This document shows, piece by piece, positions 14,621-47,074 of a DNA stretch of 64,000 nt (within the stretch, counting starts at the first letter, position 1; each line of letters starts with the position of its first letter). Both the position numbers and the translations under genes were made by a program. The notes under the pieces are model-generated. The model was not told the DNA's origin and did no database searches. It saw only the letters and a program-made list of their open reading frames with translations. The stretch is from Dipteris shenzhenensis. Its lineage: Eukaryota. Location of the stretch: NCBI GenBank assembly GCA_047967505.1, contig CM106538.1; one strand, given 5' to 3'.

Positions 14621-15289
14621 ATAAGGTCCCAGAACAAACAAAGACTAAGCCTGACGTCCCCATCAGCATCATTGGGTGGACCATCAAAGTCTGGGTTTGG
14701 CAAGTGTAAAGTCACAACCTGTCAATGTAATTACACGCCAATAGAAAGAGGCCACCAAGGATCCTAACATTCCAATCCAACCAAAGTGACTTCTGAAAAA
14801 GAAAGCACAAGTGCCTCCCCCTCAGCCAAGCAATGAGCAACCGAGCTCATCCACATCAACTCTTGAGCCTCAAATAAAAGAAACTCCATACCCGAATGCA
14901 AAGGTGGAGAAGGCTCGTTTTCAGGTACTTCAGCAATGGGTCCAAAATGAACAAGCTCAATTTGAGGCTGAGAAACAAGCTTAAGACCCAATCCATGACT
15001 TGGCCCCACAAAGTATTGATATTGTACTCAAGCCTTTGTTCCAACAACAGACTCCACAACAGAATGTACCGCTATGTCAACTTGAAGGAGCCGCACTCTC
15101 TAGCATCCTGAGTTGCCCTATGTCAATTCCCATCGGAATCCTCCTACGAAACTATCCCAATCTCTGGGAGAGTTTCAAAGGATGGATTCAACTTGCAAAT
15201 CCCCCTCCACCTATGAACGACATTGAAGACATCCCTGTGCGGATGGGTGAGAGAGATGACATATGCAACATTACTATGCCTTTGATCTA

Positions 15290-18200
15290 GAAGGCATATA
15301 ATGAAGTCCAAGCCATAGTGGATGGTGGAGCAGGTGTCAATGTCCTATCAAAGGAGATCTACGAAGAATGGGGTCTCCCACCAATGCAAAAGGCTAATTT
15401 TAACATACGCCTTGCTGATGATTTATGGGCTAAACCCTTGGGAATAGTGAATGGCATGTCCACAAAGATTGCAGGAGTCTGCTTTTCCCTTCAATTCACA
15501 ATCTTGGATCTCCCCAAAAAATCCTATCAAATCTTACTAGGATGTCCTTGGTTACGGGAACCATCAGTCCTCCATGACTGGGGAACTGATAGACTGACAA
15601 TCCAGAATCGAGACACTGCAATCAAGGTGAATGTGGGGATAGAAGCTATTAAACCAATTGTTCCTAGAGCATTGGGTGACACATCTTCCACGACAATCTC
15701 AAGCAAATCAGCTCCCTTGCGACATCATGCCATAGCAGGTGACTCACAAAGCAATGTTAATAACTGGATACAAACATTGGCAACCATCGACAACTGCCAT
15801 TCATTAGACCCCATCTTCTCACAGATAGATGCTAATGCACTATAGGTCGATCCTCCATCGACACATGAAGAACCAATCAATCTAGAGATGCCATTCTTTA
15901 TGGCTGACCTCGAATGGGATAATGAACCTAAAGAAGATACCAATACCAATGATGACTCTGATTTTCCTTGGGACCTTGAAACAGAGGCTGCGAATGTTGA
16001 AATTGAAGATCAAATCTTTGATAATGACCTAGCCATTCTGCATGCCCTAATGGCAGTCAAGCTCCCAAAAGTTGAACCTCCATAGTTGAATAATAGTAGA
16101 AGATCCCACAAGAAAGCTGCAAGAGGAAATCACAGGAAAGCCAAGGCCGAGCACTTTAATGAATTCGAATGAGTCCAATCAAGGATTGTCGAATTGTACC
16201 TTGCAAAGTCAGCTCCCTCAAAATCAGAACCATTGCCTCTTGAATGGTCCCCTGAGGGACTAGAAGGAGTATGTGCAGCACATGAACCCTTACTTGGAAA
16301 CACCTTACTAGTGGAAAAGTTACCCCACAGTTCCCAACATAAGAAGTTTCGGAAATATAAGCCACATGTGCGGATGAAGCTCGATCAAGCAATTTCAGAA
16401 AAAGAAAGAAAAGAAGAGCCTAACAAATTAATCAATGCAACTATGCCACCCAGTACACATGACACATGTCAGGCTAGTTCAACCCCATCAGAGGCCGATC
16501 TTCAAGAAGTGCTAGAATACTTCAAGAATTATACAAGTGATAGTGCAATAGTGCACCAATAGCAATGCCAAGACCACTCACAGAGTCTGAAGTTCAAGAA
16601 ATTGATAGCATTGGAGAAACTCCAATATATGAGGGACCGGCAAAAACATGCACAATAAACCTTGCCCTTGAAGGGGAGGAAGAGAAATTGGTTTTCATTG
16701 GGAAACAACTCCGTCAAGAAGATGAAACCAAACTCAAAGAACCCCTAATGGAATACCATGACTGCCTAGCATGGTCATACAAAGAGATGAAAGGAATTTC
16801 ACCAAAAGTGGTAGTACACACGATACCTATAAGGGAAGGTGCTCACCCTAAGGTATGTGGACCTTATCGCACAAATCCTAAATATGGCACCATGGTTTAT
16901 GACAAGCTAGAAAAACTCCTAGATGCCGGATTCATCTACGAGATAGAGCACACTGATTGGGTTTCACCCATTGTCATTGTACCTGAATGCAACAAGAAGC
17001 TCAGAATATGCATAAACTTAAAAAATGTGAATGTCGCTACAATTAGAGATCACTATCCTCTACCCTTAACAGAAACAGTGTTGGAAAAGGTGACAGGATC
17101 CGAAATATATAGCTTCTTGGATGGCTTCAATGGCTATAACCAAGTACACATTGCTCCTCAAGACAATCAAAAACAGCATGTGCTATAGAATGGGGTATTT
17201 TTGCATATAGAGTCATGCCATTCGGCCTTTGTAATGCCCCAGCCACATTCTAGCGAGTCATGTTCATAGCTTTCAAGTCATCTTTGAATAAGTCTTTACA
17301 GGTGTTCTTGGATGATTTGTGCATCCATTCAAACAAACAGGACCACTTCAAATGTCTTGAAGAAGTACTAATCAAATGTAGGGAGTATGGCATCTCCCTA
17401 AATCCAACAAAATGCTTGTTCATGGTCACCCATAGAGTTGTTTTGGGACACATTGTCTCTCAACATGGGATTGCAACTGACATGGACAAAATCAAAATCA
17501 TCATGGAATTGCCTCCTTCTACAAATTCCAAAGGTGTACAGGTCTTTATGGGACATGCCGGCTATTATAGAAGATTTATATTATGGTATGCCATGATAGC
17601 TAGACCACTTTACAAATTATTAGTGGAGTTCTTATGGACCGAAGAGTGCGACCAAGCCTTTGAGCGTTTAAAGTGGCACCTAATCACAACACCCATCCTT
17701 ATATCTCCCAATTGGGATATTGATTTTCATGTACATACTGATGGATCCAAGTATGCAATTGGGAGTGTGCTTTGTCAACCTAGTGAACATAAGAAAGACT
17801 ACCCCTTCTACTTTGCCAGTCGATAACTCAATGATGCAGAGATCAACTATACAACCACAGAACGAGAAGCCCTAGCAATGGTGTATAGCGTAAAGAAATT
17901 TTGGCACTATCTCCTCGCAAATGATTTTGTCTTCTACATTGACCATCAAGCATTGCTTTATCTTGTGAACCGTCCGTGTACCACAGGAAGAATAACCAGA
18001 TGGCTCCTCTTGCTGCAAGAATTCAACTTCAAAATCGTGGTCCGCGAAAGTGCCCAACACTACATTGCCGATCACATGTCTCGAGTCAAGACAAGAGAAG
18101 AAGCCACTGGAGTAGAAGACAACTTACCAGATGCCACACTATTTCAAATAGATGCTGTTCTAGAATGGTATGGAGATATCATTGGGTACGTGATGGCAGG

Positions 18201-19430
18201 AAGACCACCCTTTGACATGAAAGTAGTAGATGCTAGAAAATTGATTCTAAAAATTGCACCCTATCAACCCATTGCAAGACAACTGTACAAGATGGGCAAG
18301 GACTAGATATTAAGAAGATGTGTAATGCCTCATGAGATCATGCCAATCCTGAGTGAAGTCCATGAAGGCATTGCAGGAGGACACTTCCAAGGGGAAGCCA
18401 CAGCAAGAAAAGTTCTCCTTGCAAGCTACTGGTGGCCAACACTATGGGCAGATGCCTATGAATATGTAAAAGGCTGTGATGTTTGTCAACGGACTATTTA
18501 ACCACAACACAAAGACTTCAATCCCCTAACACCAATTGTTGCATAGAAACCATTTGAAAAATGGGGGATGGACTATGTGGGTCCCATACATCTAGCAGCA
18601 AAAGGAACACAGGCATGCTACATCATTGTGGCCACTGATTACTTTACAAAATGGGCTGAAGCTAAAGTAGTCAGAAAGGTAGATGCCAGAAGCACAGCAA
18701 GATTCTTATACAAAAATGTGATCACCTGATTCGGATGCCCCATTGAAATTGTGTCAGATAGAGGCACACATTTTGTCAATGAGGTAATCCAAGAACTCTT
18801 GTCTGGCTTCATGGTAATCCATAGAAAAGGCACACCCTACTACCCCCAAGGAAATGGACTAGCAGAATCCACAAACAAAATAATATGCATTATCCTCACC
18901 AAGGTAGTAGAACCACAATGTTTTGATTGGTCAGAGAAACTGAATGTAGCCTTATGGGCATATAGAACCACATTTTGGTGTACGGCCTTGAAGCTGTGGT
19001 CCCACTCGAATGTGTAATACCAAGTCTACGCATCGCAGTATAGGAACGCATGGGTGACCATGAATCCTTGAAAGAAAGGCTCTATCAGTTGGAAAAGCAT
19101 ACAGAGACAAGACTAGTTGCCTACCATGCCATGACAACATAAAAACGTAGAGGAAAGGCATGGTTTGACAGAAACCTTGAAGCTAAAGACATCAAGGAAG
19201 GTGACTTAGTCTTGTTATACAATGCCAATGTACATAAGGGGAAACTGAAGTATCTAGGTCAAGGACCATACCGAGTACAAAAGGTGAATCCCATCGAAGC
19301 TGTACTGCTTGAAACATTGGATGGAGTCCAATTCAACACAATAATAAATGGGAGTGAAGCGCTACTACATCAACACGCAAGCCATCCCCGACAAAAATGA
19401 AGATTTGGGAAACCAAGTATTCCTTAGTTA
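15290..19430 (+). pseudogene. pol pseudogene (protease, RT, RNase H, integrase)
   Basis: VDGGAGVNVL...ILLGCPWL protease; WVSPIVIV, FLDGFNGYNQ, VFLDDLCI RT; HTDGSKYAIG RNase H; GGHF...CDVCQR, SDRGTHF, YYPQGNGLAE, GPYRV integrase. Confidence 0.93.
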
Positions 19431-19758
19431 GGATTAGATTGTATCACGAGCACTCACTTGCATATGTATGTCTTCGCACATATAGGTAGCATCAATCGAT
19501 TTTACCTAGGGCTCAGAAGTGATGAATGAGTTCTAGCTGCCCTGTGAAAATCCTAGCAAAAAAGCATATAGTTAGTCCCTACCTAGCTACTAGGTCATGT
19601 ACACTCACACGCTTTCACTTAGACACATAGATGATTGCATGAACAATTGTACCACACACTTTCATTCCACACTCTCAAAGGAATTATAAAAAAAGATCTC
19701 TCTCCCACACACACACACACAGAAAGGTCATACCGGCATGCCAATCAATGTATAGGAC

Positions 19759-22300
19759 ATGCACATGGAAGCAGGTTCTGAAAAGATGTCGCCACTAAAG
19801 AGGATGCGCAGAAAGAGCCCACCGCCTCAACCATGGGACCCCCTCCAGAATTCACAGCCATCTACATCCTCTCAACCATGGAGACCACAGGCATTCGTGG
19901 TCCAAAGCGATAGCTCCGAAGAAGATTCAGTGCATGACCAAGCAGAACAAATGCCACCCCAATCACAACCAGCCTACACAACCATTAACAAGGCCCAATC
20001 ACTAGAACTTGTATGGCCACCCACATCGACTTATGCTCTTTCCCAGGATGCAACATTTTACTTAGAGCGGGGTCTAGGCAGTTTGCATGAGAGCCTCAAA
20101 TCCTTGGAGGACAATCCTACCCTGACCAGCTACATCAAGGACTTTCTCCATTCTTACTACTCCAGCAATGCAAAAGATGGCAAGTACGCTACAATCACTG
20201 TACAACAGAGCCCACTCAACGTTATCCTCGATAGTATAGTCATTCAAAAGGCTTTCTCACTACACAACAAGGTGGCAAATACCCTAAACGGTCTGCTGAT
20301 GCAAAGTTTATTGAAGTATAGTCTCTCCTCACCAAGGGCACATTGATCCATAGAGATGGCATATTGCTTCGCACAATCCTTGACCATCGCCTCAAGGAAG
20401 CAACACAATTCCTATCCACAATCCTGGGAATTAAGTAAGGTAAAGATGCTCCCTTCCACTCTGCACATTTGTTTTGCTGAGTAGGAAGCTAAAACAAGAC
20501 TGGGTCCAACACTTCGTCATTTTCTTTACAAAAAAACTCGATGGTTCTTCAGGCCAAAAATGTAAAATTCCACACTTATTGGCTATAATCATAAAAAAAG
20601 AACTACAAGAAAGAGAAATGACTCTACCCCAGTTACCAAAACCAATTAAGGAGTTGGACATACCCTTCTCACCAGTATGGGAGCCGTTATCAACTTCTCC
20701 AACTATCACATTGATAAGTGCAGATGCCTTAGCAGAAGTACCTAATTTGGAGGTCAGGATTGCAGAATTGCCCCATGAGATGCTACAGCTCGGTGCACAA
20801 CTGCAACCAATAAGTCTCCACCAACAGCACCAACTAGAGCTCGAGACAAGATCGGCACCCGAATTGGAGGAAAGATCGGCACTAGAGCCTAAGACTACAT
20901 CAGCACTCGAACCACCCATTGACGCCATGCCAGTCGATGAGCCACAAGGGGAGCTATCAATAGTATGACTATTGTACACAAGGGATTGAAATGCCATTGG
21001 AACAACCTCCCCCAAGTATGGCTACATGGGCACCACTTGTATCAGCAATACCACTAGACCTCATCACCATCTATCATTCTCCAACATCAAGCTAGCCAAA
21101 TGATCCAAATGTCAGAACTATTCACTAGCTTGGCCAAGGAAGAATATGCAAGAGAATTGGAAAGGCAGACTGCATCAGAAATCGAAGACCAATTCCAGGC
21201 AATCACCATAGAGGTCAAGGCACTTCGGGCACAGATAGATGAGAAGGAGGTAGAAGAAGTGTGCATGAACCAAGCTCTCCAAGCTCAAGAGCAGGCAGTA
21301 AGGGATGTGACCTCCAACCTCCACCAAAGTCAAACACAGCTGACTGTGGTAGTAGAAGCAACGGCAATCCTATAGACCTACTATAACTCCTTGACATCTG
21401 CACATGCACAACAGACGGAGGTAGTGGCACAAGCTCGACTCACTCTAATTCACAAAGAAGAAGAGCTCTAGGATTGCAAAGATAAGCTTGAAGACATGAA
21501 ACAATCTTTGGCAGTACGTGCCTTCAGCATTGATGAGCTTACAAGGGAATGCCGAATCTTAAAAGACCAACTTGCTATCGTTCAAGAGGCCAGCACTTCA
21601 CAAGCCCAAGTCTTGGACCAATGGTCCAATACCACCGAAGACATTCCTCAACAGGCAAAGGTCACCTTGCAAATGAGAAAGCTTAAGGAGGCATACACAA
21701 CCATCTACCATCAATACAAAGAAAAAATGAATGAGATGCACTCCCAAAAAATAATCATCTCCAAGCTTGAACTCCAATTGCTAGTGCACAACAATGAGGC
21801 ATTGGAAGACAACACCAATGACACCCCACTACAATGCACAACCGTGGTGTAGCAAGAGCTTGTGGATGCTCTATAAGTGGAAGATCACCTCAATGCATGC
21901 GTGCTTATCCAATGGAAGCAACTCCAAATCAGGATCATATCTACTCATCCAACAATCAATTGGGAATGTTCCATCGGGACTAAAACCCTGTGTATAATTT
22001 GCCAAGACTTGTTTGAATATGAGAAGAATATCTTCTGCCTGTCTACACATGTCGGGTTTATAACACTCAGGATGGATGCTTTCATTGCATATCTCTGCCT
22101 CATGGGTAGTCCTCCCCTTAGGGTTATTGTAGGTTTGTTGCCATTGCTACAAAGGCCATCCCTATTATTTGCACGGCATGACATAATTGACATCCCACCC
22201 ATGCAGCTGATTATCCCATCGCACTAGCAAAAAGAAGTGTCGAAAGATGACAAGGCCTATCTCACATCCAACTTCCCATATCTAACCACTCTTTCTGCCA
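19759..22300 (+). pseudogene. Extra ORF 1 (env-position ORF): plant-transposon-like domain, coiled coil and Cys-rich tail; frameshifted
   Basis: Sense ORF pieces 19759-20346, 20474-20968, 21100-21375, 21496-21852, 21877-22227; DWVQHFVIFF...KIPHLLAII motif; heptad-like E/Q/K/L-rich stretch; CIICQDLF. Confidence 0.6.
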
Positions 22301-22564
22301 ACATCATAACCTCACTTCCCCCTTGCTGCTACCACCATCTTAACCTTCCCCGAGCTCCATCCTCACATCTATTCCCTCCGTCGTCTCTGTGCTCATGCCT
22401 CTCACCATTTTCAACTTACCCAACAGTCACAAACTTATGAGCCCCTTACACCTAGCTTTTTCCCCTCCCTTGCTAATCCTACCCTTGAGGATTACCAAGC
22501 TGTTCAAACCATTTGCCCAATTCTTCACCCCCTCCCTTGTGCTCCCCCTTCCGCCACTATCACT

Positions 22565-23453
22565 TTGCCATATTTCTCCCCAATGTCCCCTGATTCTCTC
22601 CATGCCCCATCATCACCTCCGACACTTCTGGTGCTTCCATCAGTAATGACACAGTATTCGATTTTGAATATTAGGATTTGGATAACTTCCAATGATGGGT
22701 ATGATTTTGATGAGATACCACTTCCTAGTAACCCCATCAAGGAATTTTGGAGCAAATATCCTGATATGAAAACTGGAGGTGGATGGACCCTGGACAACTT
22801 TCCTACCGGCCTTTGTCAGCGTCAAATTAGTGAAGGTTGGATTATCAAGTTGGATCCACAACCTGATTGGTGCCGTCCCAAGCTCTTTGATGTAATCTTT
22901 TTAAAGGAGTACTTACGGGCACCTCCATGTCTTAGAACCCATCCCAAGTTCTATGTAGTTCCACGGCCTAAAAAATGGGAAGCCAACATACACACTTTGG
23001 CTGAAGATCGAGTCATTAATTGGCCAATGATTGAAGCCTACTCTGGTGTAGAATGGAATATCCAAGGCACAATGGTACGAGCACTTCAGCAGCATGAACA
23101 AATAATGCGCGGCAACATTGATCGCTTCCTTCACCAAAGTGCTATATTCTGTAAAACATTGGAATTCATTCTGGAGGTCCCATGTTACCTTGATTCCCAT
23201 TTGCCTCCACTCAGCTTTAATCCCAATGAAAGGGTTGATGCTCAAATTACAAGTTGGCTCTATCAAAGAGTGATCTTCTTAGAGCACGCCACATATCTCT
23301 GTTCGAGCAAATGGTGGATAGAGGCTACCTAGAAACTGCACAAAAATTGTATGGTGCCAAGGCTTTATAGCAGGATCGACTGGCACAACACAAGTTCCAT
23401 AGCCATTGGACTAAAAATATGGTAGCCCAGGTACGTGATCGCAATAAGCCATA
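22565..23453 (+). CDS. Extra ORF 2, unknown function (255 aa open; probable frameshifted extension to 23453)
   Basis: Uninterrupted ORF 22565-23332 with globular composition; a shifted frame continues ISLFEQMVDRGYLETAQKLYG...RDRNKP* and ends 35 bp before the 3' LTR. Confidence 0.55.
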
Positions 23454-23488
23454 ACTCGAGGACGAGTAATAAAATGGATCCGGGAGTA

Positions 23489-24654
23489 TGTTGACTCTGT
23501 GCCAACATGAACTTATGTAGAAAGAGAATGCGATACAACTTTGTGTTACAACTTTATGATACAACTTTATGTTACACTTTGTGTTACAATTTTGTGATAC
23601 AACTTTGTGACACAACTTTGTGTTACAACTTCTACATGTAGAAAGAGAATGTGTTACAACTTTGTGATACAACTTTGTGTTACAACTTTGTGTTACAACT
23701 TTATGATACAACTTTGTGTTACAACTTTGTGTTACAACTTTGTGATACAACTTTGTGTTACAAATTTGTGTTACATGCAGAGAGAGAAGCTCTCCAACTT
23801 GTATAAATACCCCATAATGGAATGAAGCCCACACTCTTTGGGGCATTGTGTTGAGTCTACTTTGGTATTCCAAGCATTTGTCTCAAGTGTCCATGCTTCC
23901 TTGCACTCCACGTCCAAAAGCATGTCCTAACCTTGCAACTCCTCCTCCCCTCTCCTCCAACCTTGCAACCCATCTTCTCCCTCTCCTCCTCCCTCCTCCC
24001 TCCTCCTCCTCCTCCTTCCTCCTCCTCCTCCTCCTCTCTTCTCCTCCTCCCTCCTCCTCCTCCCTCCTCTCTCTTCTTTCCCCCATGCTCTTACACCTTC
24101 TTCCTATCCCACTCCTATGCTCCCACTAAACCCTTTGTTCCTCAACCCTTAAAACTCCATGATCTATGAGGGAGATGAGTTCTTCACCATGTACTCTATC
24201 CTGAACCTTGGAACCTCCTTCTAAACCCTAGAATCTCCTTCTAGACCCTAGAACTCCTTCTAAAACCTGGAACCTCCTTATGAACCTTGGATCCTTCTTC
24301 TAACCCTAGACTCCTTCTAAACCCCTAACCCTGGACTGCTTCTAAACCCTGGAACCTCCTTCTGAACCCCAGAACCTCCTTCTAACCCTTAAACTCCTCC
24401 TAAACCCTATAACCCCCAATGAAGGCGAAAGCCTTCATTACCTCAACAAAGATGATTTACGTTCCTTTTACACATGCATGCACTTTGTTTGCTTACCACA
24501 CTTAAGCCTATGTCTCTCACCGGAACACGACTCGAGGTCCTAAGCTACACGTATACTACAATCGACAACTCTAATATATCTATAGGTGACAAAAAGCCTC
24601 GGAACCCTGCAAACATAGAATACCTAGCTCTTCCTATGAAAGCAGTAGGAAAGA
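23489..24654 (+). repeat. 3' LTR (last 7 bp missing)
   Basis: Collinear with 10517-11693 until ...gcagtaggaaaga; terminal gcaaaca is absent. Confidence 0.9.
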
Positions 24655-28855: not shown

Positions 28856-29529
28856 TGTTAACCCATTTCCATGGTTAACACATTGGCCATCCATGTTCGA
28901 TTAGATCTAGGGATTTTGTGCACATTTGCACTACATTGTATTACATTATTGGTGCACAAAGCATATGGTTTGCACCATAGGTTAGGAGGATTACATCCCC
29001 ATCCACATCTTGTTGGTTGCAATCCATGTGGCCTGTCATTGTATAACATGTGGCATAGAGGTTACCCTCTTTGATCTATATATTAAGAGCATGGCAAGAG
29101 TAGTGCTCATTCCTGCTAGCCCTAATTGGAATCCACTCTTGTGTCCTTGTGTCAACATGAGTTCTTGTCTCCTTCTTGATGCTCTTGTGTGGAAGAGTTG
29201 CATTGAGTGTGAGAGGCTGCATAGCTAGAGCTTGTGTAGCTAGGATGGGAGCACCTCATGATAATGCCCATGCCTTGTGCATGGCTAGAGTGGGTGATTA
29301 AGTGCTAAAGGAACAGGTTGAGAGGTAAGTGCGAGTTTAAAGAGAGATGAGAGAGAATGAGAGAGGAGTTGAGTCCTTTCTTATTTTGGTATTTGTTGTT
29401 TTATTTACGTTAATTTAGGTAAAGGCTAGATTAAATTTCTATTTTCTTGAGCTTGAGTTTTGGTCTCTCTCCTCCTATGTGGCTTCTAGTGCCATGTAGA
29501 TGCCTGGTGTGTTATTTGAAGGCTTAACA
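28856..29529 (+). repeat. LTR (probably a 5' LTR) followed by a degenerate Asp-type PBS
   Basis: tgttaacccatttcc...gaaggcttaaca, then tggttttattgccgag; inverted homolog at 29593-30506. Confidence 0.8.
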
Positions 29530-29592
29530 TTTTGGTTTTATTGCCGAGCCTTGGACTCGAGTCACTCGAGTGAGAGTGACTATCCTTCAAAA

Positions 29593-30506
29593 TGTTGAGC
29601 CTTAAATAGCACATGGGAATTGGAAGTGCCTCAAACAGCACATGCACTAGAAGCCACATAGGAGGCAAGAAACCCAAAACCCAACCTCAATAATACATCA
29701 ATTTAATTTAACCTATTCTAAAAGGGAAATACAACCTAAAACCTAACCTAGCCTAAAGAAAAAAACACATAGCAAAATAAGAGAAGGATTAAACTCTCTC
29801 TCTCTCTCTCATCTCTCTTTCAACTCACTCTCACCTCTCCACCTTTTCTTTTAGCAATAGTCTCCCACTCTAACCATGCACAATGAATGGGCATCATTAT
29901 GACATGTTCCCATCCTAACCACACAATCTCTAGCCATGCAAGCATGTATTGAATGGGGTAAATCAAGTCTCTACAAAAGGAGGAAATCAAGTACACGACC
30001 CATGTATCTCACTACTACAAATGAAGAACCTCCAAGACAAGAAGAAAGGAATGCTGCCGATGCAATTGCAAGACTCCTTCCACACCAAACACCACACTAC
30101 ATGAAGATCTTCAACCAAGATCTAGTGCATCTAAGTTATGAAAAGTCTCTCACACTCAAAGCAAACCTTCCACACAAGAGCATCAAGAAGGAGACAAGTA
30201 CTCATGTTAAGACAAGGACATAAAAGTGGATTTCAACTAGGGATAGACGGAATGAGTCCTCCTCTCACCATGCTCTCAATATATAGATCAAAGACGGTCA
30301 CCTTTGTGCCATATGTCATACAATGAGAGGCCACATCAATTGCAACCAATAGGATGTGGAGGGGGATGCAATCCTCCTAGCCTATGGTCCAAACCATGTG
30401 CTATGTGCACCAATAATGTAATGCAATGTACTGCAAATGTGCACACAAGCCCTAGATCTAATCGAACATGGATGACCAATGAGTTAACCATGGAAATGGG
30501 TTAACG
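29593..30506 (-). repeat. 3' LTR of the minus-strand gypsy element
   Basis: Minus strand reads PPT agtgggggca, then cgttaacccatttcc...aaggctcaaca; same family as 28856-29529 with ~240 bp extra internal sequence. Confidence 0.82.
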
Positions 30507-31260
30507 TGCCCCCACTTACAGTAAAGTACATTCCAACCTCAAAATGTGAATGTGAAACGTACATTAATGTAAGTGCAAAATATAGGGAATAGAAAATATG
30601 GCTCAAGGGGAAAATGCTGGCCGATGAGGAAATGTGCAAGATGCATGTTGATGAGGTACATGTTGATGTAGAAAGAGACTTCCCCTTAGATGATGTGGTA
30701 ATGAGAGGGGGAGGAGTTTCTATAGCATTAGGAAATAAAGGGGTGCATGACAATAATGATGGGGTGTTTTTCAATGAAAACTCAAGATGGCCTGAAAGTG
30801 GAGATAAAGGAGCTAGCATATCCAAAGGTGTTGATGAAGTATCCATGAATGTGCAAAGAGAATCTTCCTCAAAGAATGGAGAAATGAGGGGACAAGAGGT
30901 CTCCACAACATCATGTAAGGGAGGGGTCCTTGTAGGTGAATGAAGGCTTAGAGGGGCAGTCAATGATGATGATAAATCATGGGATGCCTCACTTGGTGGA
31001 ACAAACAAAGGACCATATTGCATAACATCCCACTGGCGATCTATATGAAAAAAGCCAAGATGATCCTACAATGTGGCAAGAAGTGTGGTAAACCTTGGAG
31101 TGCTATCACAAGTAGAACAAAACATGTCATCATGATGTGCAGTCCATGAACCCTAGAGTGTGTCATAGAGCTCATCACATGCATACTAGAGAAATGTTAT
31201 CGATGATCACAAATCATTGTAGCTACAAAGGAAAAGTGATATGTAGCTAGGGTAGTTTCA
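30507..31260 (-). other. S/P/T-rich ORF-like segment just upstream of the PPT
   Basis: 179-aa ORF 30484-31023 with an upstream in-frame extension through stops (CDELYDTL*GSWTAHHDDMFCSTCD...). Confidence 0.3.
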
Positions 31261-33934
31261 TGCTGTGGAGGTGGCATACAAAGGCATACATCAATGAGGG
31301 GAGATGGGGAATGTGAAGTAATACATTTCTAATGGGGGGGAGAAGGAAGGTGAATAATATTATGTGCAAGCTGGTCCATCCCATGCTCGAAATGCATGAA
31401 CATATACATGATCTAGGACTGTGAGCTTGTACGAATATGAAAAAGATGATTGAGCACATGGTGTTGACTTCAATGTTGATGATATAGAGTGGAGGAAAGA
31501 AAGAAAGAAAAAGAAAAAGGGGAAAGAGGGGGGGGAAAGGGAAAAGCAAGTGGGTAGGATTAAATTTATTAAAGGGATGGATGGGGTAAGGGGGTGAAAA
31601 AAAATATAAAAAGGAAAAAAAAGAGGGTGAAAAAAAATATAAAAAGGACCAATATTTTTAGTGGGTGGAGAAAAAGTAGACGGGAAAAAGGAGTGGGAAG
31701 GATTAAAATTTTGAAGGGGTGAATGGGATGAGGGGGAATGAGAGGAGAGGATAGGAGTATGAGGTGGTGGGGCAATGTGGGAAGCTTAGTGGTGAGGTAC
31801 ATGATAGGTGGTGGAGAGCATAGAGGGGTATGAAGTGGTGGAGGGGATAAGGGATTAAGGGTATGTGGAGGGGGTGAGGTAGAACATACGTTGTGGAGGG
31901 GATAAGGGATTAGGGTATGAGGGTTGAGGTGGTAAAGGTAGAGGGGGGGGGTGGGGTAAAATAGGGTTTCACCAACCCAACATCTTCCTGCTTAGCTCCA
32001 TGCTATTGCCTCGACAGAGACCTCCTTCGTACTATTGCTCACCTCAAAATTGTAGCTCGAGTGCTTTGAGAATCTGATGGGACAGTGGCCTCTGGAATAG
32101 GGTGAGGGTGGAGACCTAGGTCAGCTTCGAATTCGGAAAAGTCATGTTTGGACTCCATCGCAAATAGGAGGGGGAGTTGAGTGACGAGGAAATCGATGGA
32201 TGAGGAAGAACAGGAGGACATAAATTTGCTGGTGGGGATGTAGAGGAAGTGGGCAAGAAATTGTCAGATTTTTGGATAAATTTTGATAGAGTTTTGCTGT
32301 AACAGCTATGGCGATGACCTGACAGGATAGGCCTGCTTTTATAGATTTCTACCCCCCCAACCGAAGGGATATTGGTATGGCGACAGTCGATGCTGAATTT
32401 AATGGTGACGGTTGGTGGTGAACCTCGATGGCGATAGTTGGCGTGGAGTGTCTTATGCCGCAACGGGCATGGTACTCAAATGTTGACGAGGCGGTGCTAT
32501 TTTGGATGGTGATGATCCGTTGGGTATCATGATCACGATGGTCAATGGCACTATGAACATTTCGATGACGATCAATGGTGTAATGGCTTGGCAATGGTCA
32601 GTGGTGTAATGGCTTGGCAATGATCGACGGCGAACATTTCAACGGCGGTCGGTGGGGAACATGTTGGCGATGATCGGTGGTGAACATTTCGATGAGAGTC
32701 AGTAGGGTAGTGACTATGTAAAAAGAGGGAAAAGAGGAGGGAGGAGTGGGGTGGGGGAAAATGTGGACTGAACAGAGTGCACTTGTGTGGTGCAATGTGA
32801 TAGTGAGGTCAACATGCAAGAGCATGAACACTTGTAAAAGATGCAAGAGCGGCTGATCGTGTGTGTGCGTGCGGTGTGTTCAGTAGGGACTAGTGGCTAT
32901 GGGTGCATCGAGTGATATGCCTACTATACTGACTCACCTCGACATAGACGTGATGATTATGATGAATGTAGTAGAAGCAGCGCCATACTACAGCATAGCG
33001 AGTGAGGAGCCATGTAGAGTATGCATCCAGCTTGTTCCTTACCTTGGATGCCAGCGGCACCTTTGTGTCGGACTTTGTTGTTGTTGTGGGGTTAGATCTC
33101 CTTGGAGAATGAGCTTTCATGAATCTATCTATGGGGCTGGCCCCTACTTGTGTGAGTAGGGCGGTGCCATTACCTTCGAGTGTCCGTCCCTAGGGCAAGG
33201 TTCTTGTGTATCTCTTTGTGGGGTGGAATTCGGTTCCTGTAGAGTTTCTCGACTGGTGGTGGCGATGTTTGTGTTAAGTTGGACCGCCCTTGGCACCAGT
33301 GCATATTGGGTACCTTGAGGCTGGCCTATTGTGTTCGGTTCATTGTGGCAGGTTCTTGTGTTATTGTATCCCAAGAAGACATAGGCTTTTGTGGTGCTAC
33401 CTTCGATGCCTTCGGGAGTTGCCCTGTCTTTTTCTAGATCTAGGTGACTTTGTTGCCGTGACCACCCAAGCCGGCGATGTTTCTTGAAATGTCAGTGATG
33501 CGTAGCAGCGGCGGATGAGGCATGAGCTCACGGTGAAGCTTTCTTTGGTTAGTGCATGTGTGTGGGGGAAGCGATCTTAAGGTGACTAGAGCTATTGTTG
33601 CAGCGTTACCGCTCTAGGCATCAGCTCCGATCGAAGTGACATTGGGCATAGAGGATAGCATCTTGTACTTGCAGCTCTCGAACTTCTTGAGTGGAGGATG
33701 GTAGCATTGGTTGAGTGTGCAATGGCAGTGGTTTACCACTATGGTGAGCTTTCTTCTCTTTTTGAGTTGGGCCCTTAAGCAGTGTGCTAGTGGAGGCTGG
33801 GGCTTCCAAATAGCTTTGTTGTGTTGCTTCATTTTTGCATATCGACGAGGTCAAGGCTGAAGAGGGGGGCTTGGTCTGCATGGGTAGACTACTGCCGTTT
33901 GACCACCATTGGTAAGCGAAGCAGTTCGGGTGTG

Positions 33935-34270
33935 CTAGTCGATTTGGCAGTCGACAACGTAGCACCAGGTTCTTCCTAGAATAATTTGCCCTTCGGTGGC
34001 TTCTGTAGGGAGAACATAAAAGTGTATATCCGCAGCTTGGTGAACAACCATTAGACTTAGATTTACATAACCCAAGGTTTGCAGAAGTTGGCTGTCTATA
34101 TAGCCCTTATTGAGGCAATAGTGAGGGTTAGAGGTACATGTAGCTTTTCCCATACCTCTTGGGAGATGAAGTTGTGGCTCGCTCCTGGGTCCACGAGTGC
34201 TTTGATGCACATGTGCGGTACCTGTAGCTAAACAAGCAACCTGGCTAGCTCTATTGTTAGCCATCCATTA
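33935..34270 (-). pseudogene. Second retropepsin-like aspartic protease domain downstream of integrase
   Basis: CIKALVDPGASHNFISQEVWEKL (Asp codon at 34191-34189); after one frameshift, LGYVNLSLMVVHQAADIHFYVLPTEATEGQIILGRTWCYVVDCQID. Confidence 0.8.
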
Positions 34271-34289
34271 GTTGCATTTATTCAGTCGT

Positions 34290-37200
34290 TGCCTTAAGAA
34301 GGGTCATTTGTCTACGCTATCAGATCTTAGCATTATGGATTCTAGCTTCCTCAATGGCCTGGCACTTCATCCTAGCCACCTCTGCCTTGAGTTCCTTTTC
34401 TCTATGCACGGCTTGAAGGGTGGAGATAATGAGTGGTTCGTAGTATCTTTTCAATTTGCTTCCGTTTAGATAGCCATCCATTTCTATTCCATCAAGGGTG
34501 GCTATTCGGCATGACCCTTGAGGAGTGATCTCAACTATGTGGTAAGGACCATACCTCGATACTTAAGCTTATGTTTGGTGTTGCGGACACTGTACAAGAG
34601 TGCCAAGTCTCCTTTTGCCAGGTCCTTGTTCTTAAGGTTGTGGTCGAACCACTTTTTATGTCGAGCCTTTTCTACTCGGAGGGAGTAGGCTCTGCTCGCA
34701 ACCTTGTCTCTTCTAGCTTTTCAAGGTCGACTAGCCTTTCGGCCAGTGCGTCTTTCATGAGTCTTTCTTTTATGGCAAGACGGAGGCTAGGCACTACATC
34801 CATTGGCATTATTGCTCTTCCTTCTACCACTTAGTGAAGTAGTCGATGGTGAGTATGATGTATCGTGCCCTGGTCCCCTTAGCGACTAGTCTTATGGGAC
34901 CGATGAAATCGATGCCCCATTTCTTGAAGGGTTGGTCGACCAGAATTTTAGTCAGGGGCATCATGTCTGCCCTGTGGGATTTGGATGCACTGGTAGGAGT
35001 CACATCGTTTGACAAATTTGACAGCGTCTCCGAAGAGTGTTGGCCCCACCAGAGACCAGCTTGCAACACTTCACGTGCTGTAACCTCAGTGGCAAAATGG
35101 CCTTCTACAATTCTTGAGTGGGCTTCTTCAAGCACCTTGATGTATTCATGTTCGCACACGCATCTTCACAGTATGCCATCCTTACCCATGCGGTAGAGTT
35201 GCCTTGCTATTAGTTGATATGGCACTGCATCCTTAATGAGTTTACGGGCTCTATCCTTCTTGAGGTCCTAGCCTAGGGGTAGTCCATTAAGCAAGTAGTC
35301 CTAGGGGTAGTCCATTGGCCAAGTAGTGGTTGATTTCAGTAACCCATTCTGGAATGGCGCCGAGGAAGAAGAGGGAAGCATCTAGGAGATCATCTTCTAC
35401 TCCTGTTGGAGCTTCGCCGTTTTGGATCCTCAATAGGTGGTCGGCTAGAACGTGGGTTTTACCCTTATGCACAATGACTGTGAGGTTGAATTCTAGTAGG
35501 ATCAGCATCCACCTAGTGATGCATCCAGTCATGTAGGGTTTGTTGACCAAATATAGCAATGCTTGATGGTCCACAAAGAAGACAAACTTGTTGGCTAACA
35601 AGTAGTGCATGAACTTCTTAACTGCATAGACCATGGCAAGATCCTCCCTCTCAGTGGTAGTGTAGTTAACTTCGGCCTCATTTAGTTGACAGCTCGCAAA
35701 GTATACTAGGTAATCCAAATTATGCTCCCCGGGTTGGGCTAACACACATCTAATGGCAAAGTTAGAGGCATCAATGTGGACATGGAATATTAAATTCTAG
35801 TCAGGAGACCTCAATACTGGTGCAGTGGCTAGAGCTAGCTTGAGGGTTTCAAAGGATGTTTGGCACTCTTTGGTCCACTCAAAGGATACTAGCAGCTTGT
35901 ATAACGGGTTGGATGTATTGGCATAGAATAAGATAAATCTTCGATAATAGCCCCTATGGCCAGTAAATCGTTCTCCCTTAGCGTTGGTGGAAGGTGGTAA
36001 CTCCAAGAAGAGTTTGATTTTGTTGTGGTCCATAGAGATTCCATTCTGGGATAGTATGTGCCCTAGGATGACACCATGTTTGACCCAAAACTGGCACTTA
36101 AGGGGGTTGAGGGATATGCGGTATAAGCTGCACTTCTCGAGGACGAGCCTGAGATACTTCAAGTGGTCATCTCATTTTGAGTTCATGCCGATATTGTCCA
36201 AGAAGACTTCCACAAAGTCCCTCAGGTATTCCTTGAATACCGTGATCATCATACGTTGGAAGGTAGCCGGGGCATTGGTTAGTCTGAATATCATAACCCT
36301 GGCTGCATATACACCCCATTCGATTGTGAAGGTGGTCTTGTGTTGATCTTGGGGGCAATTGAGACTTGGTTTTAACCTGAAAATCCATCTAGGAAGCTAT
36401 ATGCTTTCTTTCCAGCTACCCTTTCTATGAATGGCAAGGGGTAGTAGTCACGTCTCGTGGCCACATTCACCTTCTTCAAATCCACGCATATTCTGATTTT
36501 TCCATTTTTCTTCAAGACTATCACAATCGGTGATACCTAGTCTGTATGCTCGATCTCATAGATGAATCCTGCATCTATGAGTTTTTGGATTTCTTCCCTC
36601 ACTATGAGTACATAATTAGGATTCACAGGGTAGGGGCGTTGCCATACTGGCCTGACATTATCCATCATGGGGATTGTATGCTGCACTATTGTAGCAGGTA
36701 TTCCTTTCATGTCAGTGTATTTCCAAGCCATGCAGTCCTTATATTCTCGTAGGAGAGCTATTAAGGCATTCTCCTCACTGGGAGTGAGGTCATCGGCAAC
36801 AAATATGAGCTATGGGTCCTGCCCTTATGGGGCTGTTGGTATAGGATCTTATGATCCTGGATAGTACAGGCCTTGTAGTGGGCTGATAATTGCCGTAGGT
36901 ATTCCTTATCCTCAATCTCCTTCTCTTTTTCTGTCGAAGTAGTGGACTTTTTGGTGTTAGCCTTGCCTTTTGATACAGGGGATTTGGGACTAGAAGGGGG
37001 CTCTTCCTTTGTACTTATAGAGCCGACGGGGGTGGTTACCTTACCATGTTTCCCCAATTAGAGGAGAACTTGTGGTGGGTAGTCATGGCACCTACTTAGG
37101 TCAGCCAGTGAAGATATGATTTTACCCTTACTACTCCCTTGCTTACCTCTCAGGGTTTGAGCATGTTGAACATCCTTAGGGGAACCACTGGGGTCAGACC

Positions 37201-37575
37201 CTCGAGCTCTGGGGTGGTGATCTGAAACCCTACTCTTTTCGAGACATCTATGTTGGCTAAGATGTGCATCCAGTTCTGTGAGAATTCTGGCTTGGGAAGA
37301 GGTGCATACTAGAAGTCGTCAAACTCCTTCTCATCCTCTTCCTTGTCATAGGGTTGGAATAGCTTTACAGAGGTGGTTTGGGCAGTGGTGTCAGACTCTA
37401 CGAAAGAGGTGTCTTGACAATGGGTGGGCCTTGTAGGTGTGTAGGTCCACTCTCATGTTTGCTCCTCGTGCCACAAGTAGCTATTATCATTGCGCCAGTC
37501 ATGCACGAGCCTGGACATTCGCAAGAAGGGCCTGCCTAGGATAGCTTCATATCCTAGCTGTCGAGTGAAGTCCAT
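34290..37575 (-). pseudogene. pol pseudogene (protease C-terminus, RT, RNase H, integrase with core deletion)
   Basis: YEAILGRPFL...HDW; AWKYTDMKGIP, GFIYEIEHTD, TNAPATFQR; NYTTTERE...FVDHQAL; EGHF, KWGIDFIGP, IDYFTKW, PYHIVEI, LNGSKLKRYY. Confidence 0.92.
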
Positions 37576-38442
37576 ATGGTGACCATAGGTCCGGCCCGTT
37601 TGGAGCCTCAGATGATCCCGAATGGCTGTGGGTCGAACGGTGACTATAGGTCGGTTGCTCTGTTTTGTGCACTAGTTCAATCGTATGGTCGGTGGCCTAT
37701 TTCGAGACTGTCGACCGTTTTGGGGGGACTGCATCGGCCACCCAATTGAGCCTAACCGACTACGACTGGTGGCTATATAAGAGCAAGCCCGTGAAGCCCA
37801 TTTCATCACTGGCTACAATGACCCTGATTCCTTAACATCTAGCCTCCGTCTTCTACTATTTCCAGCACGCCATCGAAGCTTCTTTCACAGGAGCGACGGT
37901 TGGGAGGCAGCGCCATCTATTGTATCAGTTCTACAGTAATCAAATTTTTGATTCTCCATACTGTCTTGTTTTCTTTCTTGCGTACGAGATCCTGTTATCT
38001 GTTGAGCACATACGTTGTATTATTTTCTTACAAATGCGATGGTGATGGGGAACAATTATGACCATGGATGGAGGGGTGGGTTCACCGCACCAGCGGCGAG
38101 GGGGGTAGTAGAATAGCAATGGTTGGTAGGAAACCACTATAGCGCCGATCAATGGCTTGTCAGGTCAATGCAAAAGTAACTCTAACATGCATTAACTTCG
38201 AGCGACGAGGTAACTTGTAGTCAGAGGTTAGGTCGGTGGGGAAGTGCTATGGCATTGGGTCAATGCAAGTTGATTGATGGGATCCGGTTAATGCATTGAT
38301 CAGCAGGGAAATCGGTCGATGCGATACGCTACAATGCTGACTCGGTGGGATAGTCATACACAATTTTGCCGACTGAGATTTGATGAGTTCTGAGAAATTT
38401 GCAGTTTCAATTCATGATTTTTTGTGATGGGGGGGTGCTACA
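37576..38442 (+). repeat. LTR-like fragment replacing gag and the protease N-terminus (strand uncertain)
   Basis: Protease homology stops abruptly at 37575; contains ggctatataag (~37770); ends ggggggtgctaca, a typical LTR terminus. Confidence 0.5.
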
Positions 38443-41756: not shown

Positions 41757-41926
41757 TGAGAGTGCTGTCAACGGAAGCAAGAACGGAAGAGGGAGAGAGA
41801 GAAACAGAGAGCCACACAAGTTTTGGTGGGTGCAGAACCCCCTAATCTTCTTTTTCATTCATTTATATATGTGTTTGAGTATTGTACATAACCGGGGTAA
41901 AGGCACAGTGACCTTTAACGCCCATA
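41757..41926 (-). repeat. Copia 3' LTR; PPT at 41927-41937
   Basis: Direct repeat of 45813-45982; the minus strand reads aagtgggaggt immediately before it. Confidence 0.95.
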
Positions 41927-41979: not shown

Positions 41980-44391
41980 CTATCCAATGCCCATCAATAC
42001 ATGACAATACTCAAACTGCTGACTAGGTAGACTCTTCGTCAGCATATCTGCAGGGTTATCATCTGTATGAACGTTGACAAGCTCTATGCGCTTGTCCTCA
42101 AGTACCTCCCTGATGAAATGGTACCTGACCTCAATGTGTTTGGTCTTTGCATGAAAGACCGGACTCCGTGCTAGCTGAATAGCACTCATGGAATCACTAT
42201 GCAATGTCGGTATACCTGTATGAATCCCCAAATCTCCCACTAGCCGATCAAGCCATATAGCCTCCTTGCAACCCTCTGTGGCTGCAACATACTCAGCCTT
42301 TGTGGTAGACAAAGCAATGCACTTCTGTGCGCGAGACATCCACGACACTGCACCACCTGCAAAGGTGAACACATAACCAGAAGTGGATCTCCTACTATCC
42401 ACATGCCTTGCATAGTCTGAATCTGTGTACCCAAGTACACGCATGTCTCCTCTACCAAAGCAGATGCACATCTCCTTGGTACCCTTCATGTACCTCATGA
42501 TGCACTTAACTGCCTCCCAATGCCTCTTTCTTGGATTAGCCATATACCGGCTAACAACTCCCACTGCAAATGCAATGTCTGGTCTAGTAGCTATCATAGC
42601 ATACATAATATTCCCAACTGCTGATGCATAAGGAACCTTGGCCATCATGGCCCTTTCCTCATCTGATTTGGGACTATCTGTATGACTCATTTTCACATAT
42701 GGAGGCAATGGAGTACTCACTGCCTTCCCCCCCTCCATATTGAAACGCTGCAATACTTTTGTAACATACTCTTTTTGTGAAAGCCAAAGGAGTTTCCTAC
42801 TCCGATCAGGCGTGATGCGCATACCAAGAATATGACCTGCAAATCCCAAATCCTTTATATCAAAGGCCTCATGCAACTTGGCCTTTAATGCATCTAGCTC
42901 ATAAGTATTCTTGCTAGCCAATAGCATATGATCCACATATAGTGATAAGATTATCAGGCTATTATCCTTAGCCCTTTTAGTGTAGAGACAGTGATCAATT
43001 TCACTCCTTCTAAAACCCTGGGACCGAATGAAAGCATCAAAATTCTGATACCATTCTCTAGGTGCTTGCTTAAGACCATAGAGACTCTTCTTCAGCTTGC
43101 AAACTAAATGCTCTTTGCCCTTTTCTTCAAAGCCTTCCAGCTGCACCATCTAAATTTCCTCATGCAAATCCCCATGCAAGAAAGCTATCTTGACATCCAT
43201 CGGCATAAGCTCCATATCCTCTAATGCCACTAGTCCAAGCATGCATCTAAGTATGGTCATCTTCACAACTGGAGAGAATATCTCATCAAAGTCCACACCC
43301 TTCTCTTGCTAGAACCCTTTCGCGACCAAACGGGCCTTGTACCTAGGCATATCATCACCTCTGACCTTCATTTTGTAGACCCATTTACATGGCAATGCTT
43401 TCTTTCCATGTGGCAAAGAAACCAAGTCCCAAGTCTTATTCTTCATAAGTGAACTCATCTCTGATTGCATAGCATACTCCCACTTGCGTTGATCCTCACG
43501 CATCATAGCCTCTTTGTAGCAAGAAGGCTCCCCGCAATCAGTAAGCATCACATAGTCTACCCCTGGAACGAACTTATCAGGCGGTCTAGACACTCTAGAT
43601 GATCTTCTCAAGGGCATTTTAGCTTGCTGTCCCACCTGCATATTAGCCACATTTGGCTCATCATTTCCACCAATAGATGATCCATCATCTACCCTTGATT
43701 GTATACATGTGGGAGTACTTGGTGGTACCATTTCTTGCACATTTGGTGCATGGACAACTTGCTGTCTATCAACATATGCAGGTGGATTCACATCCTGGAA
43801 AGTGATTCTCCTCATTTCCACATCCCTCATGGGTGCCTTATGCATTTTCTTCTCATTGAAGACTACATCTCATGGCTGCGTATGATCTTCTTTGCTTCTG
43901 GATCCCAGAGACGATAGCCCAGCTCTCCACTTTTACCATAACCCAGAAAGATGCATTTCCTAGACTTAGGATCTAGCTTCTTTCAAAGCTCTTTTGGCAC
44001 ATGTGCATATGCCTCACACCCAAATATACGCAAATGAGAGTAAGAGGGCTTCTTGCCACTCCATGCCTCTTCAGGAATACCACCATCCAAACTCTTACTA
44101 GGTGATCTATTGATCACATGCACTGCAGTCTTCATTGCCTCAGCCCAAAAACCACCAGAAATAAACTGACTCTACAAGATGAAGTCTAATAGTAGACTTT
44201 GCTAATGCATCCAACTCATTCCAATCATCCTCAGACATATTTGCAGGCTTAGCTTCAATCCCTGCCAAGGGTTTAATCTGCTTCTTTTGAATAAGCACAT
44301 CCCTTATCTATTCTTTCTACAAAGAAAAGTTTGTCCCATCAAACTTTTTAATGTTGAAAAACTCCTTTTCAGACATGGAAGAGGATGCCAT
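41980..44391 (-). pseudogene. Copia gag-pol pseudogene (gag N-terminus fused to integrase C-terminus, RT, RNase H)
   Basis: MASSSMSEKEFFNIKKFDG; FWAEA...IFGCEAY; YKARLVAKG; KSLYGLKQAPREWY; LYVDHML (YVDD mutated); GYTDSDY; TKHIEVRYHF. Confidence 0.95.
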
Positions 44392-45812: not shown

Positions 45813-45982
45813 TGAGAGTGCTCTCAACGGAAGCAAGAACGGAAGAGGGAGAGAGAGAAACAGAGAGCCACACAAGTTTTGGTGGGTGCAGAATCCCCTA
45901 ATCTTCTTTTTCATTCATTTATATATGTGTTTGAGTATTGTACATAAGCGGGGTAAAGGCACATTGACCTTTAACCCCCACA
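45813..45982 (-). repeat. Copia 5' LTR
   Basis: TG...CA termini; adjacent PBS and TSD. Confidence 0.95.
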
Positions 45983-47074
45983 GCAAGGTGGGGAAAGACG
46001 AGACTTTGTATTGTAGTTACCACATCTAGTAGTGGAATGCTTAGTAAAAAGGTGGCAAGGTGGGCATGGACACTGGGGCGAGATGAGACTTGTACCAAAT
46101 CAACCATCTCGGACTTCTTAGAATCATTGCTCATACTACTAGACATGCTCAAATTACTCTTGTCATCTTGCGAGCAACCTCCTTTATGGTCGATCCCTCC
46201 TCTGCCATACAATGATAATGCCCATCGTTTCCAAGAAGGTCTTGGCACCATCCACACTTGAAAAGTAGGGTGGCTCGGAATAGATCTAATATAGAGCATC
46301 CAAAGACGAGAACTCAGCTTGCCTTCAACCTTTTAATCCCCCACTGTCCCATCACAAATACGACCAGTTGTTGCAATGAGAAGTATAATCTCCTGACCGA
46401 CATTTTGATCGTTTGAAATGCTTGCAAGATGTGAATTGCATCAGTTGCATTGGATCTAGGCATTTGTGTTATTGGAACGGTAGCTTGCATCGGAAGAGTG
46501 GTAGTGGAATAGGTCTGGAAGCTTCTCTCTTTGACGATGGATCTTTTGACATTGATAGATTTGACTAATTTCATGAAGCTCGAACATGAGCTTGCCATCC
46601 AGAGGGGCTTAGAAATACTCAAAGGTTCATGAACATGGTCCCGTGGTTGTGTACTATCTTCGATCAAACGAGGCAAGGATCCTCTTAACAGCTTCTTCAG
46701 AATATTGTGCGTGCCAAACCTCGACCCAACTGGATAATATAAAAGGATGAGATCAACACTAGCGATGCCTCAGATCATCCTGATCTACATTAGACACTAG
46801 ACTGTATACAAAAAATTCAAGCGATTACGACTTAACATTTAGGCTTGTAGCTGAACTATGGGCATCCACGAATCGTCGAACCTCATTAGGCTTTAGACTC
46901 CGCAACGTAAAGGCACAGTTTGTAGCCCTGCAAGGGTCTTAGGAAAGGGTGGAGTTTTTCAGCTTGGGTTGGGAAAATGGGGATTTCTTTGGTATTGGTT
47001 AAGTTTGACTAGTTAGTGGAATCTCTAGGGTTGGTCGAGGGTTAGTTGGGTGGTTAGTCGTGTTTTGAATATAG

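Follow-up and report, generated by a model that had tools for sequence, protein, structure and literature searches.

The extra domains described for plant Ty3/gypsy retrotransposons are, in the available text of Neumann 2019 (PMC6317226), aRH, CHD and CHDCR, together with extra open reading frames (ORFs), and the chromodomain and aRH are treated there as markers of whole lineages and as informative about targeting and replication. Another such domain is AlkB, and the accessible part of Alvarado-Marchena et al. 2022 (PMC9289625) terms the fixation of extra protein domains in long terminal repeat (LTR) retrotransposons rare. Here we analyse a 64,000-nucleotide stretch of the Dipteris shenzhenensis genome (assembly GCA_047967505.1, contig CM106538.1; hereafter the window), which contains a decayed Ty3/gypsy pol region in which a retropepsin-like domain (PR2) lies behind the integrase (INT), in addition to a remnant of the usual protease (PR1) ahead of the reverse transcriptase (RT) and RNase H (RH). 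Comparison with related proteins indicates that an integrase extended by PR2 is very probably the regular architecture of a family and not a peculiarity of this copy.

Among described elements, the locus is best compared with the OTA group of non-chromoviral plant Ty3/gypsy elements (Athila, Tat, Ogre, Retand), with which it shares the order PR-RT-RH-INT, an integrase end with a GPY/F module and a ...NGS.L..Y motif, and a D-x-G-A-S-type protease loop whose second residue is neither Ser nor Thr, as in the AMLDLGAS of Diaspora (PMC1142308, as far as its text was available). Its RT, RH and INT are 52-62% identical to those of a neighbouring 14-kb element in the window, E2, which has gag, LTRs and a long 3' region; the putative OTA-like placement used here is drawn from this similarity to E2. 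What sets the locus apart from the group is the in-frame second retropepsin behind the integrase. Chromoviruses likewise carry a folded extra domain in frame on the integrase C-terminus, kept across the lineage, but the domain here has a predicted retropepsin fold instead of a chromodomain, and any targeting role would be hypothetical. Tat elements with aRH are an example of a lineage that has fixed a further domain of an enzymatic type that its pol already contained; according to the portion of the source at hand, however, aRH is of another kind than the element's own RH (PMC6317226), whereas PR2 resembles a duplicated protease of the gypsy type and is placed after the integrase, not beside its paralogue.

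The decayed pol occupies the minus strand from ~37,700 to 33,850, with all parts on that strand and in the order typical of Ty3/gypsy elements (PR1 remnant-RT-RNase H-integrase). Its features, in the direction of transcription, are as follows:

37456-37671, minus strand: PR1 remnant, C-terminal part, ...YEAILGRPFLRMSRLVHDW... (ORF and local alignment)
35797-36824, minus strand: reverse transcriptase, in several frames (tblastn and blastn against the neighbouring element)
35178-35796, minus strand: RNase H (Pfam RT_RNaseH, E 5.7e-27 on 35287-35796; tblastn, 60% identity to the neighbour's RH)
34827-35102, minus strand: zinc-finger region of the integrase with the initial 45 core residues (...WGIDFIGPI...DYFTKW; tblastn)
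34816-34826, minus strand: point of deletion in the integrase core, 11 nt (gap between P0033 alignments)
34440-34815, minus strand: integrase C-terminal region with GPY/F module, ending LNGSKLKRYY, in three frames (tblastn and hidden Markov model, HMM)
34255-34439, minus strand: charged helical linker and acidic stretch (alignment with the relatives' linker through stops; linker HMM, E 6.3e-10)
34102-34254, minus strand: N-terminal half of PR2 (translation; HMM, E 9.8e-8; tblastn, 41-49% identity to P0007 and P0033)
34096-34101, minus strand: frameshift within PR2, ATATAG (frames compared)
33938-34099, minus strand: C-terminal half of PR2 with GYVNLSL, FYVL and IILGRTWCYVVDCQID (translation; phmmer; HMM, E 1.2e-13)
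33854-33937, minus strand: TAG in place of the Trp of the relatives (QIDW), followed by ~27 alignable codons (tblastn)

At the upstream end, the PR1 remnant ends in ...ILGRPFLRMSRLVHDW and has decayed in its N-terminal portion; 22 of its residues align locally with the protease ORF of E2 (score 61, z 8.3, reached by 0 of 300 shuffles). Pfam assigns this piece to no protease family, and tblastn with the neighbour's protease against the window does not see it at E <= 10. In tblastn, the RT matches the neighbour's RT ORFs in two alignments, of 167 residues (52% identity, E 3e-53) and 189 residues (56%, E 5e-66), and blastn gives 64.7% over 1127 nt. Between the end of the RH alignment (35178) and the start of the zinc finger (35102) there is little room for an aRH, for which no specific search was made. 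In the integrase, residues 4-54 of the relative P0025 match 35102-34950 and residues 1-45 of P0033 match 34961-34827, after which the alignment resumes with P0033 residues 169-210 at 34815, so that ~123 core residues (P0033 46-168) are gone. The C-terminal pieces are 63-81% and ~46-57% identical to P0007, P0009, P0013, P0022 and P0033 in tblastn, and the profile of the integrase C-terminus matches the window at E 9.7e-21 and 2.8e-14. With four frameshifts, several stops and the ~123 deleted integrase-core codons, with no gag upstream of its pol and no LTR or direct repeat pair flanking it (an absence that concerns this copy, not the family), the window copy is a dead, 5'-truncated, LTR-less non-chromoviral Ty3/gypsy retrotransposon.

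Behind the integrase end (LNGSKLKRYY, ending at ~34440), the linker EPLIISTLQAVHREKELKAEVARMKCQAIEEAR continues in the same frame, which stays open for 40 codons after RYY before it meets the tandem stops TGA TAG at 34317-34322; a frameshift follows in the linker region between 34255 and 34281. PR2 as a whole spans 33938-34254. Its N-terminal half, read as ...IELARLLV*LQVPHMCIKALVDPGASHNFISQEVWEKLHVPLTLTIASIRAI, contains an in-frame stop at 34228-34230 and the active-site loop ALVDPGASHNFIS at 34162-34200, with the Asp codon at 34189-34191. The C-terminal half reads IDSQLLQTLGYVNLSLMVVHQAADIHFYVLPTEATEGQIILGRTWCYVVDCQID and holds GYVNLSL, FYVL, IILGRTW and QID, all within 33938-34099, before the TAG at 33935-33937 that replaces the relatives' Trp. 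Past PR2, tblastn extends the similarity to 33854 with P0005, P0011 and P0019, and to 33887 with P0033; the later tail motif of the relatives, described below, is absent from the window by HMM and motif scan. A sequence-only reading of this DNA had described the integrase as running without a stop into a second protease, with a separate canonical protease at ~37500. Each of the strings it named lies on the minus strand where it placed them, and the canonical protease is indeed present as ILGRPFL...HDW in the ORF at 37453-37671; of the run through the integrase end, the colinear order of integrase, linker and PR2 stands, but the continuous frame does not, being broken by stops and frameshifts in this copy.

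When an HMM of PR2 built from 17 relatives was run against the six-frame ORFs of the window, it recovered the two broken halves of the domain independently (E 1.2e-13 for the C-terminal and 9.8e-8 for the N-terminal half), both of which Pfam alone misses. The N-terminal half had played no part in finding these relatives and, judged by these scores, the PR2 match in the window is above chance level. Downstream of PR2, all three minus-strand frames at 31247-32900 carry long ORFs that overlap one another and have a high content of Pro, Ser, Thr, His and Leu; tandem repeats there are limited to one short array (32572-32622).

The relatives were found starting from the C-terminal half of PR2. A phmmer search with its 54 residues against 1.84 billion representative proteins returned four matches (E 1.1e-7 to 6.9e-5), all of them short ORFs on short contigs, from which two word-index searches and one cluster look-up gathered 46 related proteins. 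With the window's integrase end and linker as query, and restricted to longer proteins, 31 candidates were obtained, none at E <= 0.001, and a search for related loci found no relative with the queries A2 and P0017 in metagenome contigs or with A2 in viral contigs.

The integrase end motif (NGS.L..F/Y) is included in 20 of the 46 proteins, and in all 20 the sequence goes on into a homologous linker, by 25 residues or more; not one stops after the integrase. In nine of the relatives (P0007, P0009, P0010, P0013, P0017, P0023, P0029, P0033 and P0047, with P0023 counted by alignment) the same open frame reaches the D-x-G loop of PR2. These nine form six clusters at 90% identity and two clades, the second of which, P0017 and P0023, is only 36% identical to the main family in PR2 and 26% in the linker. 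P0033, on a 3.5-kb contig, is a single ORF of 685 residues that begins with the integrase core and its GPY/F region, passes through INGSKLRRFY into the linker, and contains PR2 and a tail; its frame remains open for 392 residues past the integrase end. Pfam recognises rve in its residues 9-109 (E 1.7e-11, above the cut-off) and gag-asp_proteas in residues 377-455 (E 2.5e-4); no chromodomain is found in it by Pfam at E <= 0.1, where matches are confined to rve, protease families and weak coiled-coil-type entries. After PR2 follow a Ser/Thr/Pro-rich stretch and then a basic tail in which the motif W-(I/V)-P..LL..QG(F/Y)(F/Y).G....W-(L/V)-P-(R/K) occurs twice, at residues 560-582 and 615-637; the motif is also present in P0006, P0016 and P0018. 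Three tail-bearing proteins stop at the same ...RTHQ(R), and P0033 continues beyond it. The tail motif has no match in Pfam or in the ESM Atlas, where the P0033 tail gave no usable feature match and a template modelling (TM) score of at most 0.24 by structure.

The window copy is colinear with these proteins over the integrase end, the linker (across its two stops) and PR2, with identities of 63-81% for the integrase ahead of GPY, ~46-57% for the piece that starts at GPY and enters the linker, and 30-49% for PR2. Because the relatives share the open junction and the window aligns with them through the linker, the junction is a feature of the family and not an accident of the locus. The sequence-only reading had proposed a PR-RT-RH-INT-PR2 lineage on the strength of the window copy, and the part of this proposal that extends from the integrase end onwards is borne out by the one open frame of the nine relatives, in six clusters, so that the junction is not unique to this locus; the fetched relatives begin in or past the integrase zinc-finger region and are uninformative on PR1. 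We consider it very likely that the family pol continues past the integrase through a charged helix of ~45 residues, an acidic stretch, a PR2 of ~115 residues, a Ser/Thr/Pro-rich stretch and a basic tail with W-x-P repeats, a confidence that covers architecture and homology but not function.

The assignment of PR2 to the retropepsins is consistent between structure prediction and sequence comparison. In an AlphaFold2 model of P0007 computed from an alignment of 20 relatives, residues 141-260 have block values of 69-91 in the predicted local distance difference test (pLDDT) and are preceded by one long helix at residues 86-128, equivalent to the linker, with a pLDDT of 80-94 in its middle. Searched against the PDB with Foldseek, the model has 68 matches at E <= 0.001, led by the DDI1 RVP domain (E 1.9e-6; TM-score by target 0.68-0.73 for DDI1 RVP) and including the proteases of XMRV, HIV and M-PMV and a rickettsial retropepsin; among the matches listed at this threshold all are of retropepsin type except 2pma, a DUF785 protein of unknown function. 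VIA-align gives a Z-score of 13.8 for the Ddi1 RVP domain (122 aligned residues, root-mean-square deviation 3.5 Å) and 12.0 for the EIAV protease (100 aligned, 2.8 Å), matches in BFVD are to caulimovirid, retroviral and DDI1-type proteases, and the ESM Atlas, queried with P0007, leads to protease clusters with a best score of 0.75, which we take as a lead only. On this modelling evidence, PR2 is a retropepsin fold.

With the DDI1 RVP domain and ASPRV1, PR2 thus shares its predicted fold (Z 12-14), and ASPRV1 is the best sequence match of the family profile among solved structures (E 8.4e-4), with the family Asp over the catalytic Asp. Identity is low, at 11-20% among the listed Foldseek matches and 11-18% in the Ddi1 comparisons of VIA-align, and the setting differs, as PR2 sits in a retrotransposon pol, flanked by an integrase and a low-complexity tail; in P0033 the parts next to PR2 match no Pfam family. 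In DDI1, a ubiquitin-like domain stands beside the RVP domain; none appears in the Pfam scans of P0033, P0007 and P0006, although no search was aimed at such parts. Closer to home, positions 15-112 of the PR2 HMM match the canonical protease ORF of E2 (15291-15842) with E 2.2e-8, and hhalign of PR2 with the same protease yields E 1.7e-4 over 94 columns. By these profile comparisons PR2 is a paralogue of the gypsy-type proteases, and it would have originated by duplication of a protease of the Athila type.

Within the main family, mean pairwise identity is 0.85 in the integrase C-terminus, 0.63 in the linker and 0.77 in PR2, and between the clades (P0007 against P0017) it is 0.49, 0.26 and 0.36, respectively. 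At the protein level, the stronger conservation of PR2 relative to the linker in both of these old clades points to selection on propagating copies, and we infer that selection keeps PR2 on those that are active. The active-site loop is covered by 16 of the proteins and by the window, and its Asp is kept in all of them; the second conserved retropepsin motif, [IV][IVL]LG.[TL]W, is found in 14 proteins and as IILGRTW in the window. An alignment of seven rows, namely five PR2 proteins, the window PR2 and the neighbour's PR1, has invariant columns at D, A and N, at the LG of ILG, at W and at the D of the closing D-W.

Around the invariant Asp, the loop reads D-P-G-A-S in 10 of the 16 proteins and in the window, D-L-G-A in one and D-S-G-A-D in P0017. 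In the neighbour's protease ORF it reads D-G-G-A-G (VDGGAG), and in Diaspora, an Athila-lineage element with a single protease, AMLDLGAS is given as the conserved catalytic motif of the protease in the available part of the report (PMC1142308). As the D-L-G-A-S of Diaspora demonstrates, a second residue other than Ser or Thr does occur in the canonical motif of this group, in which a strict Thr/Ser rule therefore fails. We had entertained the Pro of D-P-G as proof of inactivity and dropped it in view of the D-G-G of the neighbour protease and the D-L-G-A-S of the Athila lineage.

Several observations weigh against a duplicated, functional protease as a standing component of this pol. PR1 and PR2 occur together only in the decayed copy of the window, where PR1 amounts to 22 aligned residues; the relatives are ORFs on short contigs, perhaps from few genomes, and ORF calling partly selects for open frames; and no PR2 is detectable by the PR2 HMM in the related E2 of the same window. 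In the main clade, Pro occupies the second position of the catalytic triplet (in those 10 of 16 proteins and the window), and the triplet Gly is replaced in 4 of the 16, by DPS in one, DPR in two and DSR in one. The AlphaFold2 model of P0017, from the second clade, reaches a pLDDT of only ~40 in its PR2 part and was left out of the fold search. Pfam scores for PR2 lie below the gathering cut-offs (19.3-24.2 against 28.2 bits for gag-asp_proteas and 16.2-23.5 against 24.3 for Asp_protease_2), even if these families align to PR2 over nearly their full length; since the undoubted canonical protease ORF of the neighbour, at 22.1 bits, is likewise below threshold, scores this low are characteristic of these gypsy proteases as a group.

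If the architecture is taken as real, the chances that PR2 is a still-working aspartic protease are about even. In this case it would be expected to dimerise, in the manner of retropepsins, when the C-termini of two Pol chains meet, and the dimer could then cut within the C-terminal extension, releasing the integrase from the tail or trimming the tail. The sequence-only reading had likewise suggested that PR2 could process a C-terminal extension, and the relatives do have one.

The strongest competitor, a serious possibility that we nonetheless rate below a working enzyme, is that PR2 is a pseudo-protease that has kept the retropepsin fold but lost catalysis in the main clade, where Ser has given way to Pro, and that is retained on the integrase C-terminus as a dimerising, host-protein-binding or tethering module, in the manner of a chromodomain. 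The prevalence of D-P-G against the D-S-G-A of the divergent P0017 speaks for it, as do the long confident helix ahead of PR2 and the position behind the integrase, where known tethering modules, the chromodomains, also sit according to the accessible text of PMC6317226. The D-L-G-A-S and D-G-G-A-G loops of the Athila lineage and the neighbour, however, deprive the second residue of diagnostic value here, and the Asp, the Gly-Ala, ILGR and the closing D-W are retained between the clades. That DDI1 RVP domains are the best structural matches has also been counted in its favour, but this says little, because gypsy proteases generally resemble DDI1 RVP.

We think it improbable that PR2 originated in a single internal duplication, became fixed in one master copy and has since been carried along as a neutral passenger, decaying slowly and without a function. 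The loss of the triplet Gly in a quarter of the loops (4/16) would fit such decay, and E2 shows that a related element does without PR2; but the arrangement is common to two clades that have diverged to 36% identity in PR2 and 26% in the linker, PR2 has kept its hallmark motifs and is better conserved than the linker, and the frame of P0033 has stayed open for hundreds of residues behind the integrase. That PR2 is a fragment of the gag-protease of another, nested or adjacent element, brought next to the integrase by an insertion or deletion, as the sequence-only reading had allowed, is plausible a priori in a copy that lacks LTRs, has suffered a big internal deletion and is interrupted by stops and frameshifts on the way from its integrase to PR2, but can be dismissed as extremely improbable, given the same open junction in nine relatives, the continuation past the integrase end in 20 of 20, the residue-by-residue alignment of the window with its relatives through the whole linker, and the lack of a gag or zinc knuckle ahead of PR2.

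Taking the duplicated protease as the preferred reading, a more far-reaching version of it, which we put forward only tentatively and regard as unlikely, is that a plant gypsy lineage has fixed a catalytically alive retropepsin at the far end of pol with a job of its own, either as a separately timed protease that frees the integrase from its basic tail or as the partner of PR1 in an asymmetric, two-lobed enzyme. Pepsins arose by duplication and fusion, and the comparison with bilobal pepsin-like aspartic proteases suggests itself in that both would have two homologous retropepsin-type units per polypeptide; PR1 and PR2, however, are separated by RT, RH and integrase, and their pairing is hypothetical. 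Were they to pair, the lineage would represent a living intermediate between retroviral homodimeric and pepsin-like bilobal proteases.

A second protease behind the integrase would be a new lineage marker, and it prompts the question of why an element whose protease already functions as a homodimer should retain another one at the opposite end of pol. In the full-text literature searched, outside subscription journals and the supplementary (domain) tables of Neumann 2019, we found no LTR retrotransposon described as having a second protease, whether additional or duplicated, in agreement with the sequence-only reading, which knew of none after the integrase; nor is a second protease mentioned in the available portions of PMC7264820 (Vicient and Casacuberta 2020), PMC11963269 (a Retand study of 2025) and PMC9289625 (Alvarado-Marchena et al. 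2022). In the latter, as far as its text could be consulted, the screen for unusual domains removed the usual classes first, the protease included; because that class is filtered out beforehand, a duplicated protease is invisible to such screens, and the Pfam cut-offs likewise miss PR2. In annotation, copies of this kind are liable to be misread as two nested elements.

The neighbouring element E2, which is related to the decayed element but has no PR2, is organised as follows:

10517-24654, plus strand: E2, 14-kb gypsy element
10517-11686 and 23489-24654, plus strand: LTRs of 1.19 kb, 92% identical
13633-13989, plus strand: gag
15291-15842, plus strand: protease ORF
16544-18303, plus strand: RT and RH
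18370-19397, plus strand: integrase

Its integrase is 54-62% identical to that of P0033, and its frame stops 14 codons past INGSE; then follows a 3' region of ~4 kb with ORFs that have no Pfam match, some of them coiled-coil-like (21058-21849). In a tree computed from 14 rows and 123 columns of the integrase C-terminus, three groups are seen, with 2 of 11 inner branches well supported; the tree is unrooted and is compatible both with loss of PR2 in E2 and with primary absence. A run of 100 N lies within E2 at 11995-12094.

The window contains further transposon remains. A third integrase fragment at 4587-5060 on the plus strand (Integrase_H2C2, E 5.3e-18), with weak RT matches at 3137-3999, represents another gypsy remnant, and a Ty1/copia reverse transcriptase lies at 41980-43866 on the minus strand (RVT_2, E 7e-33 and 2e-10). 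Two direct repeats of 168 nt at 41757-41924 and 45813-45980, 97% identical and 4056 nt apart, may be the LTR ends of the copia element. At 46314-46766 on the minus strand, an ORF matches Hs1pro-1_C at 29.5 bits against a cut-off of 29.3 (E 6.9e-7) and may be the only non-transposon coding piece seen in the window; Hs1pro-1 is a plant gene family. Finally, inverted repeats at 28857-29218 and 30144-30505 are 88% identical over 362 nt, and between them, at 29218-29940, 720 nt match their own reverse complement at 70%.

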